A stretch of 24,000 bases of DNA from Zobellella sp. DQSA1 (GCF_041950555.1 NZ_CP169531.1:2970560-2994559), one strand, 5' to 3'; shown: positions 5,434-24,000, counted from the first letter of the stretch. Program-made: numbers and translations. The notes: generated by a model from the sequence alone, not told the origin.

Positions 5434-5450
5434 ACAGTGAGTGTATCAGT

Positions 5451-5504
5451 CCCCAGTCCCCAGTCCCCAGTCCCCAGTCCCCAGTCCCCAGTCCCCAGTC
5501 CCCA
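5451..5504. repeat. Perfect tandem heptamer array (CCCCAGT)x7 plus a partial eighth unit CCCCA
   Basis: Units start at 5451, 5458, 5465, 5472, 5479, 5486 and 5493, and the partial unit spans 5500-5504. The array ends 2 nt before the stop codon (5507-5509) of the minus-strand TauE-family gene. Confidence 0.98.
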
Positions 5505-5506
5505 AA

Positions 5507-6244
5507 TTACCAATAGAACCGCACAAAGTAGTAACCGCTCAGGCCGATGCCAAACAGCACTATGGTCCAGGCCAGCAGCCGGGGCTTTATCCATACCAGC
5601 AGCCGGGCACCCAGCTTGCCCCCGACCAGATACCCCAGCGCCAGCACCAGGCAGGCCCGCCAGTGCACCAGTCCGGACAGGGAATACACCAGGATGGTGG
5701 CGCCGCTGGCCAGCATCGACAGATACAGCTTGATGGCGTGCTGCTGCAGGTTGGATCCCATCCTCAGCTGGCCGGTCAACGCCATCAGCAATACCCCCAG
5801 GCCACCACCGAAGAAGCCGCCGTAAAAGGCACCGCCCAGCAACAGTGGCCAAGCCCGGCGTTTCATGTCGAGCGGCCCTTCGAAACCGGAGCGGCTCAGC
5901 AGTTGGCGGGCATAGAGCAGGCTCACCGTCAGCAGCAGCCAGGGTACCAGGTAGTTGAAGCTGTCGGCATGGAACTGCACCAGCGCCAAAGCCCCCAGTC
6001 CGCCACCGGCCAGGCCGATGCCGGTCAGTGCCAACCAGGGGCCGCTGCCGAGCTGGCGACGCATGCCCCAGAAGGCACTGGCATAGCCGGGCCAGGAAGC
6101 CACACTGGCGGTAGCCACCGCACCGGTGCTGGGTACCCCCGTAGCCAGCAGCGCCGGCAGGGTCAAGAAGAGGCCGCCACCGGCCAGGGCATTGAGCACC
6201 CCGGCGAGCAGGGCCCAGCCGAGCAGTTCGTACATAAGAAGCAT
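5507..6244 (-). CDS. TauE/SafE (DUF81) family anion-exporter-type membrane protein
   Basis: A polytopic hydrophobic protein with Gly-rich transmembrane helices (LNALAGGGLFLTLPALL.., GGAFYGGFFGGGLGVLLMA) typical of TauE/SafE. The start is chosen at ATG 6244 (MLLMYELLG); ATG 6235 is also possible. The track start at 6301 adds a non-hydrophobic extension with no support. Confidence 0.7.
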   Translation of the reverse strand: MLLMYELLGWALLAGVLNALAGGGLFLTLPALLATGVPSTGAVATASVASWPGYASAFWGMRRQLGSGPWLALTGIGLAGGGLGALALVQFHADSFNYLVPWLLLTVSLLYARQLLSRSGFEGPLDMKRRAWPLLLGGAFYGGFFGGGLGVLLMALTGQLRMGSNLQQHAIKLYLSMLASGATILVYSLSGLVHWRACLVLALGYLVGGKLGARLLVWIKPRLLAWTIVLFGIGLSGYYFVRFYW

Positions 6245-6369
6245 CCTGTGACAGGCATCCGTGCGGCAATGAAGCGGGCAATGACGTCCCGGAGAGTGCA
6301 AACGATCTTATACCTGATCGTATACAATGCTGGCTATATTACCGATTCCCGCGGATCAAGTCACCGAGG

Positions 6370-6398
6370 TGGCCATTATTGCCGCTCTTCATTAGAAT
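6370..6398 (+). promoter_or_regulatory. Candidate sigma70 promoter for pth-ychF
   Basis: -35 TGGCCA (6370-6375), a 17-nt spacer, then -10 TAGAAT (6393-6398), about 30 nt upstream of the pth ATG. This rests on a sequence match only. Confidence 0.3.
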
Positions 6399-6428
6399 AT
6401 GGCGTCATTTTAACGGCCGACTCAGCAT

Positions 6429-7025
6429 ATGAATCCTATCGAACTGATCGTCGGGCTTGGTAATCCGGGCCCGGAATACGCCCACACCCGCCATAACGCC
6501 GGCGCCTGGTATGTGGCCGAGCTGGCCCGGCGGCATGGCGGCCAACTCAGGGAAGAAGGTAAGTTTTTCGGCTGGACCGGCCGGATACGCATCGGGAACC
6601 ATGAGGTACGGCTGCTGATCCCGGCCACCTTCATGAACCGCTCGGGCAAGTCGGTAGCGGCCATGGCCAACTTCTACCAGATCCCGCCCGAGGCGATACT
6701 GGTGGCCCACGATGAACTGGACCTGCCCCCGGGCAGCGCCCGCTTCAAGCAGGGCGGCGGCCACGGCGGTCATAACGGCCTGAAGGACATCATTAGCAGC
6801 CTCGGCAACAACAAGGATTTTTACCGGCTGCGGCTCGGCATCGGCCATCCGGGGCACAAGTCCCAGGTCGCCGGCTTCGTGCTCACCAAGGCGCCGGCTC
6901 CCGAGCAGAGCCTGCTGGAGGCCACGGTAGACGAGGCCGCCCGCACCACCGATATTTTATTCAACGACGGCATGACCAGGGCGATGAATCGCCTGCATGC
7001 CTTTAACGCCGATTCCACCAAGTAA
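6429..7025 (+). CDS. pth: Peptidyl-tRNA hydrolase
   Basis: 198-aa ORF starting [27 protein letters not shown], with the catalytic His region and a GHNGLKDI motif. The pth-ychF pairing is conserved. Confidence 0.96.
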
Positions 7026-7041
7026 ATTTCAGGACACAGCT

Positions 7042-8133
7042 ATGGGTTTTAAATGCGGTATAGTGGGACTGCCCAATGTGGGCAAATCCACCCTGTTCAA
7101 CGCGCTGACCAAGGCGGGCATCGAAGCCGCCAACTTCCCCTTCTGCACCATAGAGCCGAACACCGGCGTGGTGCCGGTGCCGGACCCGCGTCTCGATGCC
7201 CTGGCCGAGATCGTCAAGCCCCAGCGTATCCTGCCCACCACCATGGAATTCGTAGACATCGCCGGCCTGGTAGCGGGGGCCTCCAAGGGTGAAGGCCTGG
7301 GCAACAAGTTTCTGGCCAACATCCGCGAGACCGACGCCATCGGCCATGTGGTGCGTTGCTTCGACAACGACAACATCGTGCACGTGGCCGGCCAGGTATC
7401 GCCCAAGGACGATATCGAAATCATCAATACCGAACTGGCGCTGGCGGATCTGGACACCTGTGAGCGGGCCATGCAGCGCAACGCCAAGAAGGCCAAGGGC
7501 GGCGACAAGGACGCCAAATTCGAGATGACGGTGCTGGAAAAGCTGCTGCCCGCCCTGGAGCAGGCCCGGGTACTGCGCAGCGTAGAACTCACCAAGGAAG
7601 AGAAAGCGGCCATCGACTACCTGAACTTCCTCACCATCAAGCCGACCATGTACATCGCCAACGTCAATGACGACGGCTTCGAGAACAATCCCTACCTGGC
7701 CCAGGTGGAGGAAATCGCCGCCGCCGAAAACGCCATAGTGGTGCCGGTGTGTGCCGCCATGGAATCGGAAATCGCCGAGCTGGATGCGGAAGAAGCCGCC
7801 GAATTCATGGCCGACATGGGCCTGGAAGAACCGGGCCTGAACCGGGTGATCCGCGGCGGCTACCAGTTGCTGAACCTGCAGACCTACTTCACCGCCGGGG
7901 TGAAGGAAGTCCGCGCCTGGACCATCCCCGTGGGAGCCACCGCGCCCCAGGCCGCAGGCAAGATCCATACCGACTTCGAAAAGGGCTTTATCCGCGCCCA
8001 GACCATCGCCTTTGACGACTTCATCAGCTACAAGGGTGAACAGGGCGCCAAGGAAGCGGGCAAGATGCGCTCCGAGGGCAAGGACTATATCGTCAAGGAC
8101 GGCGACGTGATGAACTTCCTGTTCAACGTCTGA
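7042..8133 (+). CDS. ychF: Ribosome-binding ATPase YchF (Obg-family)
   Basis: Homology begins at the internal ATG 7042 ([23 protein letters not shown], a P-loop). The C-terminus [12 protein letters not shown] is typical of YchF. Confidence 0.96.
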
Positions 8134-8251: not shown

Positions 8252-8288
8252 AAACGCCCCGCGCAAGCAAGCCTGCGCGGGGCGTTTT
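8252..8288. terminator. Bidirectional terminator hairpin between convergent ychF and the CsgG-like gene
   Basis: AAACGCCCCGCGC (8252-8264) and GCGCGGGGCGTTT (8275-8287) are perfectly complementary over 13 bp, with a 10-nt loop. T-rich sequence follows on both strands. Confidence 0.7.
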
Positions 8289-8306: not shown

Positions 8307-9143
8307 TCAGTTGACCCTCAAAACCCCACCGGTACCCAGACCACCTTCAACATCCTGAGCCTTGTAGTTCTTCAGGGAGACGATCATCTTGTTCCAGGCG
8401 TCGTTGAACGCCGCCACCGTCGCCTTGCCTTCCGGTGTGCGAGAGAAACCACCCAGGCCACTGGCAACGTTGCCGGTCAGGCCGGCTATCGCCGCGCCGT
8501 AGTTGGTGGCGGTGGCACTGCCTTCGGAAATGGAAATCTGCACGGAGGAACGGATGTCGAACAGTGACAGGGTCACCACCGAGGCTTTCGACTGCATGGC
8601 ACCCGCCAGGCCCGCTACGGTGCTGTTGCCGAACAGGCCGCCGAGGGCCGCACCCAGGCCGCCAACCGAGTCGTTGTCGATGATTATCTTCGGCTCGAGG
8701 AAGTAATCCGCGGCGACGCGCTGCCCCTTGTGCTGGTTGGAGCCGGCCCGGTATTCACCGGAGTTACGCTGCTGATCGGTAATCCGGCTCAGGTTACTAT
8801 CGAGTTGCTGGTTGCCGATAGCGGTGATCACGAAGCAGTTGGACTGCTGCACGGCCAGGCGCAGCAGGGGCTCGATACTGGTAACCTGGGTGGCGCTGCC
8901 GAAGCGGCCATACCAGTCGGCGTTGCGGCCGTCATCCATGGCGATGGTGCCGAGGGAACGATCGCAGCGCTCCAATTCAGGGTTGGCTCCTGCACTGGTG
9001 CTGCCACCAGCCGAGCCGGACATGGCGGTGGACTGGTTTCCGGTGCTAAGCATTCCGCCACCGGCACAGGCCGAGAGGCTGGCGCCCAGCAAGCACAGGC
9101 CGAACAGCCTGCCGGCTTTGGATGGGGTGCGAGTGATGTTCAT
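8307..9143 (-). CDS. CsgG-like (CsgG/HfaB/LpoB-fold) outer-membrane lipoprotein
   Basis: 278 aa with a lipobox LSAC (Cys26) and Ala at +2, which predicts outer-membrane sorting. The mature part shows the pattern I associate with the CsgG family: a short strand motif (LGTIAMDD), a helix (IEPLLRLAVQQSNCFVITA), an ...ADYFLEPKII motif, and a Gly-rich loop followed by VVTLSLFDIRSSVQISISEGSA. The assignment is by recognised pattern, not by a search. Confidence 0.5.
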   Translation of the reverse strand: MNITRTPSKAGRLFGLCLLGASLSACAGGGMLSTGNQSTAMSGSAGGSTSAGANPELERCDRSLGTIAMDDGRNADWYGRFGSATQVTSIEPLLRLAVQQSNCFVITAIGNQQLDSNLSRITDQQRNSGEYRAGSNQHKGQRVAADYFLEPKIIIDNDSVGGLGAALGGLFGNSTVAGLAGAMQSKASVVTLSLFDIRSSVQISISEGSATATNYGAAIAGLTGNVASGLGGFSRTPEGKATVAAFNDAWNKMIVSLKNYKAQDVEGGLGTGGVLRVN

Positions 9144-9258
9144 GAGGTGTATTTCTCCCTGTCTATTTTTTGATATGTTGGACGGTCATTGCTTGGCCAG
9201 GCGGTCAGGGAGTATCCCGACCCTTCCTTGGCTGAGTTTTCTGATTGACAGTCCTGGG

Positions 9259-9867
9259 TCAGTAATACCAGTATCCCTGTCTCCAGTAGCCGAAGTATGA
9301 ATAACCCCGGTACCAGTAGCCGCGATAGTATTCACGCCAGTGCTGGCGCCAGCGATAATCCCCGGCCTCCCGTTGTTTCGCCTCGGCGGCTTCCGCCAAC
9401 AGGGAGGCTGACTCCTGATCTCCCTGGGCAGCCGCCATGGACAGCCATTTCTCCGCTTCTTGCGGATCGCTGCCCATTTCCTCGAGGCCGCTCAGGTAAT
9501 ATCCGCCCAGTGCTTGCTGGGCATGAAGCAGGCCGCTTTCGCCGGCCTTGCGCATCCATTGCAGCGCCTGGTAGCTGTTGCGTTGTATACCGTCACCACG
9601 GAAGTAACGCAGAGCGAGATCATAAGCCGCCCTGGGGTCACTGCTCGCCGCCTCTTCGAGTTTAAGTATTTGTTCGCTTTTGACGACCGGCGGCTCGTCC
9701 AGGTAGTCGGCGGTAGCAGAGGAAGAGGAACGTTCGGAACAGCCGGTGTCGTCGCAGAAACGCAGGGTTTCTTTAGAGGTGCTGGTAGCACAGGCGCTGA
9801 GGGTTACGGCGACGCCGACCAGAATGAGACATTTCTTCAGCGGGTTGCCCCTTGAATTGCTGACCAT
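9259..9867 (-). CDS. Sel1-repeat (SLR/TPR-like) lipoprotein with an aromatic/Arg/Gly-rich C-terminal tail
   Basis: The start is chosen at ATG 9867, which has AAGGAA about 9 nt upstream. The track start at 9894 is a GTG with no better support. The lipobox is LSAC (Cys26, +2 Ala). Sel1-type repeats are present (AAYDLALRYFRGDGIQRNSYQALQWMRKAGESG; HAQQALGGYYLSG...EAEKWLSMAAAQG). The tail reads DYRWRQHWREYYRGYWYRGYSYFGYWRQGYWYY. Confidence 0.75.
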   Translation of the reverse strand: MVSNSRGNPLKKCLILVGVAVTLSACATSTSKETLRFCDDTGCSERSSSSATADYLDEPPVVKSEQILKLEEAASSDPRAAYDLALRYFRGDGIQRNSYQALQWMRKAGESGLLHAQQALGGYYLSGLEEMGSDPQEAEKWLSMAAAQGDQESASLLAEAAEAKQREAGDYRWRQHWREYYRGYWYRGYSYFGYWRQGYWYY

Positions 9868-9950
9868 AGCGAAACATTCCTTGTAAATAGGCACAGGCTA
9901 AATAGAAAAATGCGGGACTCTTATTTTCAACCCAACCGTAAAAGCCAACA

Positions 9951-9970
9951 ACCTGTACTAAAGTACAGGT
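9951..9970 (-). promoter_or_regulatory. lux-box-type palindrome (candidate LuxR-family operator) upstream of the Sel1/CsgG-like operon
   Basis: ACCTGTACTAAAGTACAGGT has 9-bp perfectly complementary arms around a 2-nt centre. It matches the V. fischeri luxI lux box ACCTGTAGGATCGTACAGGT at 16/20 positions, with mismatches only at central positions 8, 9, 11 and 12. A minus-strand GAAAAT -10-like hexamer (9928..9923) lies 35 bp centre-to-centre downstream. Confidence 0.6.
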
Positions 9971-10619
9971 AGCCAGACTGTTATCCTCTGGGTATCTACG
10001 AGATGTCGCGTCAATAGTTTCCAGCGGCAGCGTGGGTTGACCATCCAGTGTCGGGATATTTTTTGAAGTCAGCGATAACGATATATTGGTACCACGGCGA
10101 TAGGTTAAATAGCTGTTCCGAATAGTAGATCACTGCCGACAGCGACCGGGGGCTGCTAAGCAGGCCCTTCGCGCCAGGGATGGCGCGGCGGAGCCCCCAA
10201 GGATGGGGTTACGGCGTGTCTGCGTGCGGTGTCCGCTCGATGTAGCACTATTAGGATCTATTATTTAAACAAGCGCGGCCATGATCTGCTCAAGTCAGCA
10301 CCGATGGTCACGACCTTCATGAATCAATACAGGAAACCAGCTCATGAATTTCAAACCATGTACTGGATAGGCCACAACATCCAGACTCCGGGCTGTCCCC
10401 GAATCTCGCCACGCGGTTGCCGCAGCCGAGCACGCCTGTACCCCACTTCAGTGCCGGGGCTTGGCGTGGTTACCGGCACGACATGAGCGAGACGAACACC
10501 AACACCTTGACAAAAAGTAGCGGGGCGTTTTCACACTTGGCTAAACTCAAGGCATGTCACCTCCGCTCACCCGGGCTATGGAATGGACTGCAAATATGAT
10601 GAACTCAGGGGATTGATGA

Positions 10620-11327
10620 ATGTTAGCCAAGAGTGATCTGCTCTTGACGCTTGATCTTATTTCCAAGTGCCTGGAGATAAGAAGTCAAGAGAACCTCAAG
10701 GAACTAAAGGACACCCTAAGCAAAGAGCTGGGCATCAGTTCCATGGTTGCCGGTCGTGTATGTCGGTACACCAAAGTTGAAACCGGATATTTTTTTGGCA
10801 TAAGTGAAGAATGGAGTAGGTTATATATAGAAAACAATTATTCCATGGTGGATCCTGTATTTAATTTATCTATCAGATCCTCTGTCCCCTTCCTGTGGGC
10901 GACTGCTTACTCCCGCGCTGGCCATAACAGTAACGAGTTTATCCAACGCGCCAGGGATTTCTCTCTGATGGAAGGCATTTGCTATGCACCAAAGGATTAC
11001 TCAATGGTGGCCGATACCACAGTGGTATCGCTTGGAAATGGAAAAACGCCTTTAGATCGTATGCAAGTCGAGATTATCAAGCATCTCATCCCCCATATTG
11101 CTGAAACCCTGATGCGGCCTTCCCTGTGGAACAATCCAAGATTAACGCCAAAAGAGATAGAAGTTATCAAATGGTGTGCTCATGGCAAGTCTTACTGGGA
11201 GATTTCCCTGGTCATGTCCATTTCCGAGCGAACGGTAAAATTTCATATGAATAATATCTTCAAAAAGCTGGATGTCCTGAATAAGGCCCAGGCTGTAGCC
11301 AGATGCATGAGCTTGGGATACGTGTAG
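10620..11327 (+). CDS. LuxR-family transcriptional regulator with an autoinducer-binding domain and no adjacent luxI (LuxR solo)
   Basis: 235 aa. The C-terminus is a GerE/LuxR helix-turn-helix (HTH) domain (LTPKEIEVIKWCAHGKSYWEISLVMSISERTVKFHMNNIFKKLDV). The N-terminal domain carries W65, Y69, D78, P79, W93 and G119, and the first five have exactly the spacing of TraR W57/Y61/D70/P71/W85. AGGGGA lies 7 nt upstream of the ATG. Confidence 0.85.
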   Translation: MLAKSDLLLTLDLISKCLEIRSQENLKELKDTLSKELGISSMVAGRVCRYTKVETGYFFGISEEWSRLYIENNYSMVDPVFNLSIRSSVPFLWATAYSRAGHNSNEFIQRARDFSLMEGICYAPKDYSMVADTTVVSLGNGKTPLDRMQVEIIKHLIPHIAETLMRPSLWNNPRLTPKEIEVIKWCAHGKSYWEISLVMSISERTVKFHMNNIFKKLDVLNKAQAVARCMSLGYV

Positions 11328-11382: not shown

Positions 11383-12618
11383 ATGAGCGAGCATTCCGGA
11401 GATTCGTTCATCACCATGGCGGCACACGCCCTCGCACAGGGAGATCCCCTGGGAGCGCTCGCTCGGATCGCCCTTCACGATGACGCGCCTTCGCTTGCAC
11501 TGCGCGGCATCGCGATGGCGCAGCTTGGCGACTTCGCTCGTGCCAAGGCGCTCTTGCGCAGGGCGACACATGCCTTCGGGCCGAAGGAAGCCATCGCCCG
11601 GTCGAAGTGTGTCGTGGCCGAGGCCGAAATTGCACTCGCCTCGCGAGACCTGAACTGGCCGGCCAAGAGGCTCGATATGGCGCGGGCGCTATTGGAAAAG
11701 CACGGCGACCGGGCCAACGCCGCCCATGCACGGAACATAGACATCCGGCGCCAGCTTCTGCTCGGTCGCCTCGACGACGTCGAAGCGGCGCTCGCCGGGA
11801 TCGATCCCTCGCCCTATTCCCCCCTATTGAAAACCATTCACGAGCTGATAACGGCGGGAGTCGCCCTCCGCCGCCTTCAAACAAAAAGGGCCCGCTCGGC
11901 CCTCACGCGGGCCGAACGGGCCGCTCGTCAGGCAGGCATTCCCGCACTGCTGGCGGAAGTCGAAAGTGCCGCTCTCGCCCTGAGTACCCCCGCCGCTCGT
12001 TTGATCCGACGAGGCCGGGAACGGCCGCTCCTGCTGGAGGAGGTAGCGGCATTACTGGCGTCAGAGGCGTTCGTCGTGGACGCCTGCCGCCATGCTGTGT
12101 GCGATGCGAACGCAACGGTCTCGCTTGCGGGACGCCCGGTGTTGTTCACCCTCGCCCGCCTGCTGGGCGAGGCCTGGCCCGGCGACGTGCCGAGGAACGT
12201 CCTCATTGCCCGTGCCTTCCGGACCAAGTTTGCCGATGATACCCATCGCGTTCGGCTGCGTGTAGAAATGGGCCGGCTTCGCAAATTGCTGCAGACACTG
12301 GCCGAGGTACGTGCGACGACGCAGGGATTTGCGTTGGTTCCGAGCCGCGCCAGGGAGGTCGTCGTACTGGCGCGACCCATCGAAGAAAAGCATGGGGAAG
12401 TGCTGGCCCTGCTTGCCGACGGTGAAACCTGGTCGAGTTCAGCCCTGGCACTGGCGTTGGGGGCCAGCCAACGCACCGTACAGCGGGCTCTCGAGTCGCT
12501 TGCGCACTCGGGCAAGGTGCAATCATTCGGGCACGGGCGTTCACGCCGTTGGGGACTTCCGCCGCTCCCGGGATTCACGACAACCTTGTTACTCCTGACG
12601 TCGCCCCCGGGGGGCTAG
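11383..12618 (+). CDS. Multidomain transcriptional regulator: helical/TPR-like N-terminus, OmpR/PhoB-like winged helix, C-terminal HTH
   Basis: 411 aa and Ala/Leu/Arg-rich. The central segment VSLAGRPVLFTLARLLGEAWPGDVPRNVLIARAF..DTHRVRLRVEMGRLRKLL resembles a Trans_reg_C winged helix. The C-terminal WSSSALALALGASQRTVQRALESLAHSGKV is an HTH. The function is otherwise unknown. Confidence 0.6.
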   Translation: MSEHSGDSFITMAAHALAQGDPLGALARIALHDDAPSLALRGIAMAQLGDFARAKALLRRATHAFGPKEAIARSKCVVAEAEIALASRDLNWPAKRLDMARALLEKHGDRANAAHARNIDIRRQLLLGRLDDVEAALAGIDPSPYSPLLKTIHELITAGVALRRLQTKRARSALTRAERAARQAGIPALLAEVESAALALSTPAARLIRRGRERPLLLEEVAALLASEAFVVDACRHAVCDANATVSLAGRPVLFTLARLLGEAWPGDVPRNVLIARAFRTKFADDTHRVRLRVEMGRLRKLLQTLAEVRATTQGFALVPSRAREVVVLARPIEEKHGEVLALLADGETWSSSALALALGASQRTVQRALESLAHSGKVQSFGHGRSRRWGLPPLPGFTTTLLLLTSPPGG

Positions 12619-12653
12619 GATAAAAACAAATACCCGGCAACGAGGATAGCGAC

Positions 12654-13289
12654 ATGAAACGAACAACAGCCGACATCATTCATGAATATGGCCCCTTTCC
12701 GGGAGTAGACGCCGTACATGGGGTAACCTACGACGGAAGGCAGGTCTGGTTTGCCAGCGGAGACAGGTTGCACGCCCTGGATCCGGCGAGCGGGAAGACA
12801 CAAGGTGCTATCGATGTCACCGCCAATGCGGGAACGGCTTTCGACGGCCATTACCTGTTCCAGCTCGGCGGGGATTGCATCCAGAAGATAGAGCCGCAAA
12901 GCGGCCGGGTCGTCGCCACACTCCCGGCACCCGGCGGTGATGGCTGCAATGCCGGGCTTACCTGGGCCGAAGGATCGCTCTGGCTGGGACGGTACCAGGA
13001 CCGGAAGATCCTTCAACTCGATCCCCAGACCGGGGAGGTGCTTCGTACCATCGATTCCAACCGCTTCGTCACCGGAGTCACTTGGGTTGATGGCGAGCTG
13101 TGGCACGGCACCTGGGAAGGCGACGAGAGTGAATTGAGGCACATCGATCCACGAACAGGCGAGGTTCTGGCCACGATCGAGATGCCCCCCGGGACAGGAG
13201 TATCGGGGTTGGAGTCTGATGGCCGGGAGCGATTCTATTGCGGAGGAGGTGATAGCGGTAAAGTGAGGGCCGTACTCCGTCCGAAATGA
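12654..13289 (+). CDS. Glutaminyl-cyclase-like (Glu_cyclase_2-type) beta-propeller protein with no signal peptide
   Basis: 211 aa with repeated blades of the form G(L/V)T(W/Y)xDGxLW...(L/I)DPxTG(E/K)V(L), for example GLTWAEGSLWLGRYQDRKILQLDPQTGEVL and GVTWVDGELWHGTW..LRHIDPRTGEVL. The family call is from recognised pattern only. Confidence 0.5.
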   Translation: MKRTTADIIHEYGPFPGVDAVHGVTYDGRQVWFASGDRLHALDPASGKTQGAIDVTANAGTAFDGHYLFQLGGDCIQKIEPQSGRVVATLPAPGGDGCNAGLTWAEGSLWLGRYQDRKILQLDPQTGEVLRTIDSNRFVTGVTWVDGELWHGTWEGDESELRHIDPRTGEVLATIEMPPGTGVSGLESDGRERFYCGGGDSGKVRAVLRPK

Positions 13290-13670: not shown

Positions 13671-13747
13671 GGCTATGTAGCTCAGTTGGTTAGAGCACAT
13701 CACTCATAATGATGGGGTCGCAGGTTCGAATCCCGCCATAGCCACCA
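13671..13747 (+). tRNA. tRNA-Met (CAU), elongator type
   Basis: GGCTATGTAGCTCAGTTGGTTAGAGCACATCACTCATAATGATGGGGTCGCAGGTTCGAATCCCGCCATAGCCACCA. The cloverleaf is readable, the anticodon loop is CTCATAA, and the CCA end is encoded. It is close to E. coli metT/metU. Confidence 0.95.
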
Positions 13748-13753
13748 CTCTGC

Positions 13754-13828
13754 TGGGGTATCGCCAAGCGGTAAGGCAGCGGGTTTTGATCCCGCCATTC
13801 CCAGGTTCGAATCCTGGTACCCCAGCCA
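13754..13828 (+). tRNA. tRNA-Gln (UUG)
   Basis: TGGGGTATCGCCAAGCGGTAAGGCAGCGGGTTTTGATCCCGCCATTCCCAGGTTCGAATCCTGGTACCCCAGCCA. The anticodon stem is GCGGG/CCCGC with loop TTTTGAT, and the CCA end is encoded. Confidence 0.95.
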
Positions 13829-13831
13829 TAT

Positions 13832-13906
13832 TATCTGTCAAGCTGGATTAACAGCGGGTTTTGCTCCCGGCCTCAGCGCCCAGGTTCGGAACTCGGTAAC
13901 CAGGCT
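13832..13906 (+). pseudogene. Decayed tRNA-Gln copy in the operon spacer
   Basis: It aligns by eye to the intact tRNA-Gln. CAGCGGGTTTTG (anticodon stem and loop) is identical and CCCAGGTTCG of the T-arm is retained. The acceptor stem, D-arm and T-stem complement are broken (..TTCGGAACTCGGTAACCAGGCTA). Confidence 0.5.
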
Positions 13907-13954
13907 ATTTTTTAAATGGCTGGCAATTGTGTTATAACTGCCAACCATCACTGT

Positions 13955-14029
13955 TGGGGTATCGCCAAGCGGTAAGGCAGCGGGTTTTGATCCCGCCATT
14001 CCCAGGTTCGAATCCTGGTACCCCAGCCA
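13955..14029 (+). tRNA. tRNA-Gln (UUG), identical to the copy at 13754
   Basis: 75/75 identical sequence, with the CCA end encoded. Confidence 0.95.
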
Positions 14030-14039
14030 TTTTTCATAA

Positions 14040-14107
14040 ATGGTTGAAGAAAAGCAGAGTTTGGCACCGGCATTTATGACCTGGTTCGTAGCTCGGCACT
14101 ACAGCCA
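14040..14107 (+). pseudogene. Second, more degraded tRNA-Gln-derived spacer
   Basis: AAGCAGAGTTTGGCACCGGCATT...CCTGGTTCGTAGCTCGGCACTACAGCCA parallels AGGCAGCGGGTTTTGATCCCGCCATT...CCAGGTTCGAATCCTGGTACCCCAGCCA. No cloverleaf can be drawn. Confidence 0.4.
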
Positions 14108-14141
14108 TTTAAACACCATTGAGGCGACTCAATGCTTATGT

Positions 14142-14218
14142 GGCTATGTAGCTCAGTTGGTTAGAGCACATCACTCATAATGATGGGGTCGCAGGTTCGA
14201 ATCCCGCCATAGCCACCA
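14142..14218 (+). tRNA. tRNA-Met (CAU), identical to the copy at 13671
   Basis: 77/77 identical sequence. Confidence 0.95.
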
Positions 14219-14225
14219 CTCTTTT

Positions 14226-14310
14226 GCGGGAGTGGCGAAATTGGTAGACGCACCAGATTTAGGTTCTGGCGCCGCAAGGTGTGCGAGTTCAAGTCTCGCC
14301 TCCCGCACCA
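14226..14310 (+). tRNA. leuW: tRNA-Leu (UAG), class II with a long variable arm
   Basis: GCGGGAGTGGCGAAATTGGTAGACGCACCAGATTTAGGTTCTGGCGCCGCAAGGTGTGCGAGTTCAAGTCTCGCCTCCCGCACCA. The anticodon loop is TTTAGGT. It matches my recollection of E. coli leuW. Confidence 0.95.
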
Positions 14311-14318
14311 TTAAAAAT

Positions 14319-14393
14319 TGGGGTATCGCCAAGCGGTAAGGCAGCGGGTTTTGATCCCGCCATTCCCAGGTTCGAATCCTGGTACCCCAGCCA
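14319..14393 (+). tRNA. tRNA-Gln (UUG), third identical copy
   Basis: 75/75 identical to 13754-13828. Confidence 0.95.

Positions 14394-21296: not shown

Positions 21297-24000
<2,704 letters not shown>

Follow-up and report, generated by a model that had tools for sequence, protein, structure and literature searches.

CsgG, the curli channel of Escherichia coli (PF03783; 4UV2/4UV3), is the described protein that comes closest by fold to a predicted lipoprotein of 278 residues encoded in the DNA analysed here, a stretch of 24,000 nucleotides from Zobellella sp. DQSA1 (NZ_CP169531.1:2970560-2994559; the whole stretch is referred to as the window). Other described systems also bear on this locus: LpoB, the activator of penicillin-binding protein 1B (PBP1B; PF13036); the PelB–PelC, AlgK–AlgE and FlgT–MotX complexes (9H80, 7ULA and 8Z5N), in which a helical-repeat protein is combined with an oligomeric envelope partner; and, on the regulatory side, LuxR and the lux box of Vibrio fischeri together with the solo receptors SdiA and QscR. 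In the window, the gene for the 278-residue protein follows that of a Sel1-repeat lipoprotein, and a divergent LuxR-family gene lies beyond a lux box. We propose, with a probability of about 0.5, that an imported quorum-sensing promoter drives a widespread envelope module in which the 278-residue protein would form a ring and the Sel1 protein would act as its adaptor. The features on which this reading turns are as follows.

8307-9143, minus strand: open reading frame of the 278-residue CsgG-superfamily lipoprotein
9259-9867, minus strand: open reading frame of the Sel1 lipoprotein, read from ATG (listed as 9259-9894 from a GTG)
9923-9928, minus strand: -10-like hexamer GAAAAT, which with TTGTTG at 9946-9951 and a 17-nucleotide spacer makes a weak sigma-70-type promoter toward the Sel1 gene
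9951-9970, no strand assigned: lux box ACCTGTACTAAAGTACAGGT, a perfect 8+8 palindrome 83 bp upstream of the Sel1 ATG
10620-11327, plus strand: LuxR-family gene, 235 residues

The 278-residue protein shares with CsgG an N-terminal lipobox and the order of the alpha/beta core, and CsgG is its near full-length best fold match. Its two Gly-rich inserts occupy the places of two CsgG inserts that we take to be the CsgG membrane hairpins, and a conserved aromatic loop (DDGRxxxW77xxxF81G82) takes the position of the CsgG constriction loop. The CsgG constriction is built from a ring of Phe residues followed by rings of Asn and Tyr (PMC4594475). However, the protein has no significant direct sequence similarity to the E. 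coli channel and falls below the Pfam cut-off. The curli genes csgE, csgF, csgA and csgB are absent from the neighbourhood of the pair at 80 loci (the best 80 of at least 493 confirmed in a scan with one genome per species), and the constant partner is instead a Sel1 lipoprotein, which curli systems lack. Moreover, whereas CsgG is an oligomer and a pore, the 278-residue protein is known from its sequence and a monomer model.

The remaining comparisons are less close. LpoB, too, is a lipoprotein; it shares the class of core fold, has a flexible linker and gives the steadiest Pfam signal in close homologues, but the 278-residue protein is approximately 100 residues larger, carries two inserts and a conserved C-terminal tail, and matches LpoB at residues 95-158 with a score below the cut-off. 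Both window proteins match complexes of the PelB–PelC, AlgK–AlgE and FlgT–MotX kind; these matches rank below CsgG and generic Sel1 proteins, polysaccharide and flagellar genes are absent nearby, and the resemblance is architectural only. The regulatory part resembles the V. fischeri system and the solo receptors in its two-domain receptor, six pocket residues and 16/20 dyad, in a box that abuts the -35 element of a weak promoter, and in having no luxI among the window reading frames scanned. It differs from the V. fischeri system in its cargo, an envelope lipoprotein operon, and in the predicted position of the box centre, approximately -44.5 rather than -42.5.

The lipoprotein pair

In 79 of the 80 loci, tblastn placed a Sel1 homologue within 1 kb upstream of the 278-residue homologue, on the same strand in 72 and divergently in 7; in the one remaining locus, 148 bp of contig precede the gene for the 278-residue homologue. 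Identity across these loci is 61-74% for the 278-residue protein and 34-59% for its Sel1 partner, and clustering of all open reading frames in the 80 loci yielded no third conserved neighbour. The genomes are for the most part Beta- and Gammaproteobacteria. Among the carriers are Ralstonia, Paraburkholderia, Burkholderia, Cupriavidus, Comamonas, Variovorax, Nitrosomonas, Rhodocyclales of the Dechloromonas/Thauera type, Methylobacillus, Halioxenophilus, Porticoccaceae, Klebsiella/Raoultella and a metagenome-assembled genome of Desulfobulbaceae, and Nitrosococcus occurs among the protein matches to the 278-residue protein. In closer relatives (79-89% identity in the 278-residue protein; several named Pseudomonas-type), the pair lies in several different chromosomal contexts, and because of these differing contexts it behaves as a mobile two-gene cassette. 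Literature searches on pairs of a CsgG-like or LpoB protein with Sel1 found no description of the pair; we found no name, curated NCBIfam model or paper for either protein, and the PADLOC defence models gave no match. We conclude that these lipoprotein genes constitute a genuine and undescribed pair with strong co-occurrence, a variant of the CsgG world marked by its constant Sel1 partner. An earlier note on this DNA, made from the sequence alone, had named co-occurrence in other genomes as a check on its proposal and knew of no described system combining a CsgG-like with a Sel1 lipoprotein; both points hold. A fusion of the two families was also looked for: long relatives of the 278-residue family are joined to DUF900, CHAT or SH3_3, never to Sel1.

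The pair genes are separated by a spacer:

9144-9258, minus strand: spacer of 115 bp with the GC-rich hairpin GGUCGGGAUACUCCCUGACC

Hairpins of differing sequence occur at the same place in relatives (L081, L082 and L084), with spacers of roughly 80-115 bp. The fold z of GGUCGGGAUACUCCCUGACC is -1.2, which is not significant. We infer that the pair genes are co-transcribed, and the spacer hairpin might set the expression ratio of their products.

The 278-residue protein begins ...GASLSAC26-AGGG, with the lipobox LSAC and a Cys26 that is nearly invariant in the family alignment (A1). A conserved Gly/Ser-rich linker (residues 27-56) leads into the alpha/beta core, which runs as a strand, the first Gly-rich insert (about 157-184), two strands, the second insert (about 214-236) and a long helix; the protein ends in the conserved sequence GGLGxGGxLxV. 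Both the linker and the C-terminus (265-278) contain invariant residues despite disorder in the model and may serve as docking peptides, one conceivable target being the groove of the Sel1 protein. More than 2000 protein homologues at 62-88% identity were found, and a profile search of 1.84 billion representatives returned 979 clusters at E ≤ 0.001, of which 542 reach E ≤ 1e-10. Thirteen of 20 more distant family members score above the Pfam CsgG gathering threshold, with alignments covering approximately 45-208 of the 210 profile positions; because these members pass, the family belongs transitively to the broad CsgG family.

A monomer model of the 278-residue protein was built with AlphaFold2 (AF2) and compared with the PDB by Foldseek. 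Chains of the CsgG pre-pore 4uv2 occupied ranks 1-7 and 9-12 (E 3.9e-6 to 4.6e-5; probability 1.00; alignments of up to 246 columns with chains 216-241 residues long), and the CsgG entries 4uv3, 6l7a and 6si7 were matched as well. The pre-pore was followed by FlgT (3w1e, 8z5n_0), the Vibrio LPHT ring, membrane-bound CsgG, CT253, GNA1162 and PelC, and the 50 Foldseek matches listed contain no LpoB entry. Foldseek thus recovers the CsgG fold, from a model with a predicted local distance difference test score (pLDDT) of 52.5. Taken together, the fold and the transitive profile evidence make membership of the CsgG superfamily highly probable. The CsgG-like features proposed in the earlier note therefore stand at the level of the superfamily fold and of 13 of 20 distant relatives, but not at that of Pfam, where the window protein itself fails the CsgG model. 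That the protein would be a membrane-spanning pore is a proposition at slightly under even odds.

The Sel1 protein has 202 residues when read from the ATG at 9867, which is preceded at 9 nucleotides by an AAGGAA ribosome-binding site; the same length is found in a public record (P0292). The GTG at 9894 was dropped as a start in favour of this ATG. Read in this way, the N-terminus is ...VTLSAC26-ATST, and both minus-strand products, each with a signal peptide, carry LSAC at Cys26 and Ala at +2, as the earlier note had described. Assignment to the Sel1 family is likewise confirmed (PF08238; 51.6 bits against a cut-off of 30.7), as is the fold in an AF2 model with pLDDT 85.3, in which a CDxxGC beta-hairpin (34-47) precedes helix pairs at 78-163. 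None of the 358 homologues has a name more specific than 'sel1 repeat family' or 'TPR repeat' protein. Their alignment (A3) shows, besides three Sel1 repeats, the conserved CDxxGC motif and, at the C-terminus, a block in which W185, Y189, Y191 and W195 are invariant. This aromatic region had been described as a tail rich in Tyr, Trp, Arg and Gly. In the model it consists of a helix (167-187) and a hairpin (194-201) with pLDDT >90, and it is best described as a folded, conserved C-terminal domain and not as a loose tail; a disordered or amyloid-like tail is ruled out by this confidence and by the invariant Trp and Tyr positions. Foldseek matched the Sel1 model to generic Sel1 proteins (probability 1.00) and then to AlgK and to chain C of the LPHT flagellar-ring entry 8z5n, which we take to be MotX. 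The NCBIfam models for MotX and AlgK also matched weakly.

The LuxR gene, its lux box and their relatives

The regulator contains Autoind_bind (1.7e-13) and GerE (3e-18) domains, and its closest PDB matches are CviR, RhlR, QscR, LasR, SdiA and TraR. Six residues (W65, Y69, D78, P79, W93 and G119) do not vary among 15 family members; by their spacing they presumably correspond to W57, Y61, D70, P71, W85 and G113 of TraR, hallmarks of the pocket for N-acyl homoserine lactone (AHL). A search of window reading frames against Pfam revealed no LuxI-type synthase, and no second LuxR-family protein was seen; the description of this gene as the window's sole, divergent LuxR without a luxI is therefore upheld. 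Orthologues are rare, with 21 matches, and a metagenome scan with the LuxR as query added one useful locus. In all, six arrangements were recovered: the window with contig L106, L089-L094 (70% identity), L104 (71%), L103 (63%), L100 (55%) and L101/L102 (47%). No LuxI-type synthase lies within ±8 kb of the 70%-identical orthologue L089. In the Bacterioplanoides locus L101, one is encoded two genes downstream (L101:6295-6960). Because a LuxI accompanies the more distant relative and not, within 8 kb, the closer one, the solo state may have arisen within the clade.

All the orthologues face operons whose first gene encodes a predicted lipoprotein (L089:6127-7763, L103:3-1267, L104:3-335, L100:4122-4760 and L101:2438-3562). 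In three lineages the cargo is a conserved trio with no Pfam match recorded (a 123-residue lipoprotein, a 123-residue secreted protein and a 261-residue lipoprotein); one lineage has a 212-residue lipoprotein, Bacterioplanoides has a lipoprotein hydrolase followed by a 2542-residue protein of the polyketide synthase type, and the window has the Sel1 lipoprotein. The clade seems to specialize in envelope lipoprotein cargo.

When up to 3 mismatches are allowed, the palindrome ACCTGTACTAAAGTACAGGT has no second match in the 24 kb (0 occurrences expected from shuffled sequence), and it is identical at 16/20 positions to the V. fischeri lux box ACCTGTAGGATCGTACAGGT (printed in, for example, PMC4444344). 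In all six LuxR arrangements, a box matching that of the window at 13-18 of 20 positions occupies the divergent intergenic region, 83-111 bp upstream of the leftward gene. In the compact loci luxR starts 107-120 bp from the box, but this distance grows to 650 bp in the window and to 1324 bp in L101. On the leftward side of the box, a TTGTTG immediately next to it and a GAAnAT element 17 nucleotides beyond are kept at fixed spacing in the orthologue loci (alignments A2 and A4), and no comparable conservation was seen on the rightward side. In the window these weak -35 and -10 elements give a predicted start at about 9916, which puts the box centre near -44.5.

Eleven LuxR-derived loci contain the core pattern CCTGNACNNNAGTNCAGG, and none of the 88 derived from the pair does. 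Nor does this LuxR accompany the pair elsewhere: tblastn detected it at 0 of the 80 loci, it is not among the called genes of L081-L088, and the region upstream of the Sel1 gene has no homology with other pair loci. Judged by sequence and conservation, the near-canonical lux box reported earlier appears genuine, and it belongs to the LuxR unit and not to the pair. The proposal that the four parts form one module does not survive these counts or the lineage-dependent cargo of the LuxR; the LuxR and its box form a quorum-sensing unit of an ordinary kind, which in a single lineage has acquired the pair as cargo. A search of the intergenic region against Rfam returned Ysr224 only, at 10165-10267 and below threshold (25 bits against 70).

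Junction, proposed mechanism and rival explanations

An independent metagenome contig from another sample, L106 (1048 bp), encodes a LuxR 87% identical to that of the window. It matches the window at 91.8% over 9849-10006, a piece in which the box and the -10 element are followed by the ribosome-binding site and the first 18 nucleotides of the Sel1 gene, and at 85% over 10461-11327, which is mostly luxR. Because L106 matches across it, the junction of Sel1, box and luxR is real and common to a diverged relative. Between the two matching pieces lies an insertion:

10007-10460, no strand assigned: insertion of 454 bp between box and luxR, with imperfect 30-nucleotide inverted repeats (10097-10126 and 10247-10276) around a GC-rich core

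The insertion is not in L106, where 20 bp take its place, and is partly common to contig L110. From its inverted repeats it looks like a miniature transposable element. Because L110 begins inside the repeat, the data suggest that the element is present in several copies in the sample from which L110 comes. No remnants of the ancestral three-gene LuxR cargo were detected in the window by tblastn. The best reading is a single joining event, in the ancestor of this small lineage, between the pair cassette and a piece with luxR and its promoter; the pair would now occupy the target position of the quorum-sensing promoter.

In the mechanism that we propose, the low-GC piece would consist of a gene for a LuxR-type receptor with its own target promoter, placed directly upstream of the two-gene envelope module. 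AHL-bound LuxR would bind as a dimer to the 20-bp box approximately 44 bp upstream of the predicted start and would recruit RNA polymerase, leading to transcription of the bicistron. Both lipoproteins, with Ala at +2, would probably be sorted to the inner face of the outer membrane. There the 278-residue protein, with its CsgG-type alpha/beta core, would most likely form an oligomeric ring reaching into or through the outer membrane, and the Sel1 protein would be an obligate periplasmic adaptor that could dock by way of either the repeat groove or the aromatic C-terminal domain, a role that may be likened loosely to those of CsgE and CsgF in serving CsgG. A stronger version, in which the pair would be a two-protein outer-membrane channel (a CsgG-like pore with an obligate Sel1 subunit whose aromatic domain serves as gate or adaptor) spread horizontally as a two-gene cassette and switched here by quorum sensing, seems to us unlikely.

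Several results weigh against the proposed mechanism. The window protein has no match to Pfam CsgG at E ≤ 0.1 (gathering score 20.8 bits), and its sole Pfam match is LpoB, at 19.2 bits over residues 95-158 against a cut-off of 22.3. Direct alignment of A1 with E. coli CsgG by hhalign gave a non-significant probability of 1.4%, and a search with a hidden Markov model of the broader family gave a non-significant 1.8 bits. A global hhalign of a more diverse family alignment reached E 0.0022 with a likewise non-significant probability of 5.3%; in favour of the CsgG relationship, this alignment is colinear with CsgG and places GGLGAALGG opposite SGGVGARYFG of CsgG. A PDB sequence search with the family profile found no match even at E ≤ 10. 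The AF2 monomer, with its pLDDT of 52.5, has template modelling scores of 0.25-0.48 to CsgG, and the Gly-rich inserts, which have GxxxG-like spacing, were drawn with pLDDT <50, in part as short helices and not as strands. No substrate gene and no csgE-, csgF-, csgA- or csgB-like neighbour is conserved across the 80 loci. Several Sel1 homologues in A3 have a signal peptide without the lipobox Cys, so lipid anchoring of the Sel1 partner is not universal. The link between this LuxR and the pair is confined to the lineage of the window, and AHL binding, activation by LuxR and the transcription start are themselves predictions from sequence.

The regulation could be as proposed while the pair does something else. 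The two proteins might be a periplasm-facing lipoprotein scaffold for peptidoglycan synthesis or envelope architecture, with a CsgG/LpoB/TolB-N fold and a TPR-like partner (TPR, tetratricopeptide repeat), comparable to LpoB or LpoP with PBP1B, PelC with PelB, or FlgT with MotX in Vibrio flagellar rings. LpoB matches 30 of 30 close homologues (best 1.9e-5) and CsgG 7 of 30 (best 0.0015), all below or near the cut-off, and LpoB is the only Pfam family matched by the window protein. Each pair protein also has a low-complexity linker of 30-40 residues after its lipid anchor; LpoB has a similar low-complexity linker in this position. FlgT, PelC and GNA1162 are among the fold matches of the 278-residue model, the Sel1 model and its NCBIfam matches recall MotX and AlgK, and the Gly-rich inserts are not drawn as hairpins. 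Nevertheless, the best and near full-length fold match is CsgG and not LpoB, the LpoB match is confined to the shared core, and the TIGR02722 model of LpoB scores 15.4 where 110.55 is required. Distant relatives pass the CsgG cut-off and not that of LpoB, over the region that holds the inserts, and no PBP, pel or flagellar genes lie nearby at the 80 loci. We regard a scaffold as possible but rather doubtful.

The proposed promoter may also be questioned at the level of the box, which could serve luxR autoregulation only, or be a relic, beside a Sel1 operon with its own promoter; the adjacency would then have no regulatory meaning. It speaks for such an arrangement that the box also keeps a constant distance from the luxR start in compact orthologue loci, that the pair elsewhere lacks both LuxR and box (80 and 88 loci) and that a general promoter scan called no promoter here. 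In the expanded intergenic regions of the window and L101, however, the box stays with the leftward gene, 650-1324 bp from luxR, and the conserved -10-like and TTGTTG elements point left. In L106, moreover, the piece from the promoter to the Sel1 start is better conserved (91.8%) than the mostly-luxR stretch (85%), and the 83 bp between box and ATG leave little room for a second promoter. On balance, adjacency without regulatory meaning strikes us as improbable. The notion that the palindrome acts in RNA, as a hairpin or intrinsic terminator, and not as a protein-binding site arises because a scan calls it terminator-like on the minus strand, with an 8-bp stem followed by TGTTGGCTTT. Yet no minus-strand gene lies upstream of it, the dyad is kept in orthologues where the T-run is not, 16 of 20 positions match a lux box, and the palindrome always accompanies the LuxR gene; we give this notion almost no credence.

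The strong conservation of the 278-residue protein points to an important envelope function. If it is a CsgG-type pore with a new partner, the known uses of this pore fold would be widened, and the fold is of interest to nanopore engineers; if the pair is a periplasmic scaffold, it would be an ordinary uncharacterized family. The four-part locus has so far shown no new mechanism. It illustrates cleanly how a LuxR can travel with its promoter and acquire new cargo. The pair is well suited to functional study, and the quorum-sensing link offers an experimental handle on it in one lineage.

Flanking genes and base composition

The left flank of the window consists of the core genes prfA, hemA, lolB, ispE, prs, pth and ychF, and the right flank of six tRNA genes, an FAD-monooxygenase gene and then miaB, phoH, ybeY, corC and lnt. 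Five genes lie between the end of ychF at 8133 and the first tRNA at 13671. The GC content of this interval is a mosaic, with 0.446 for luxR (0.52 at third codon positions), 0.40 for the 83 bp from the box to the Sel1 ATG and 0.59-0.63 for the pair, against 0.61 for the window. With the varied contexts of the pair in close relatives, this mosaic agrees with the earlier placement of the locus in non-core DNA. Outside the interval, the reading frames of 632 residues (22045-23943, minus strand) and 340 residues (5441-6463, plus strand) gave no Pfam match at E ≤ 1e-5.

A further feature follows the gene for the 278-residue protein:

8258-8271, minus strand: terminator-like hairpin with T-run, 36 bp past the stop codon, called by consensus scan only

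Matches of this kind are not commoner in the window than in shuffled sequence; the hairpin probably closes the operon.

The DNA between luxR and the tRNA cluster holds two more accessory genes (11383-13289), which encode a 411-residue protein with weak C-terminal winged-helix matches and a 211-residue beta-propeller (Glu_cyclase_2, 1.8e-11). By tblastn, all 80 pair loci lack both this helix-turn-helix gene and the propeller gene, and neither was seen beside LuxR orthologues. In the tRNA cluster itself (13671-14393), the six genes (Met, Gln, Gln, Met, Leu, Gln) include a Met-Gln unit that is repeated. The cluster marks the edge of the accessory interval, where it could plausibly serve as a hot spot for integration.

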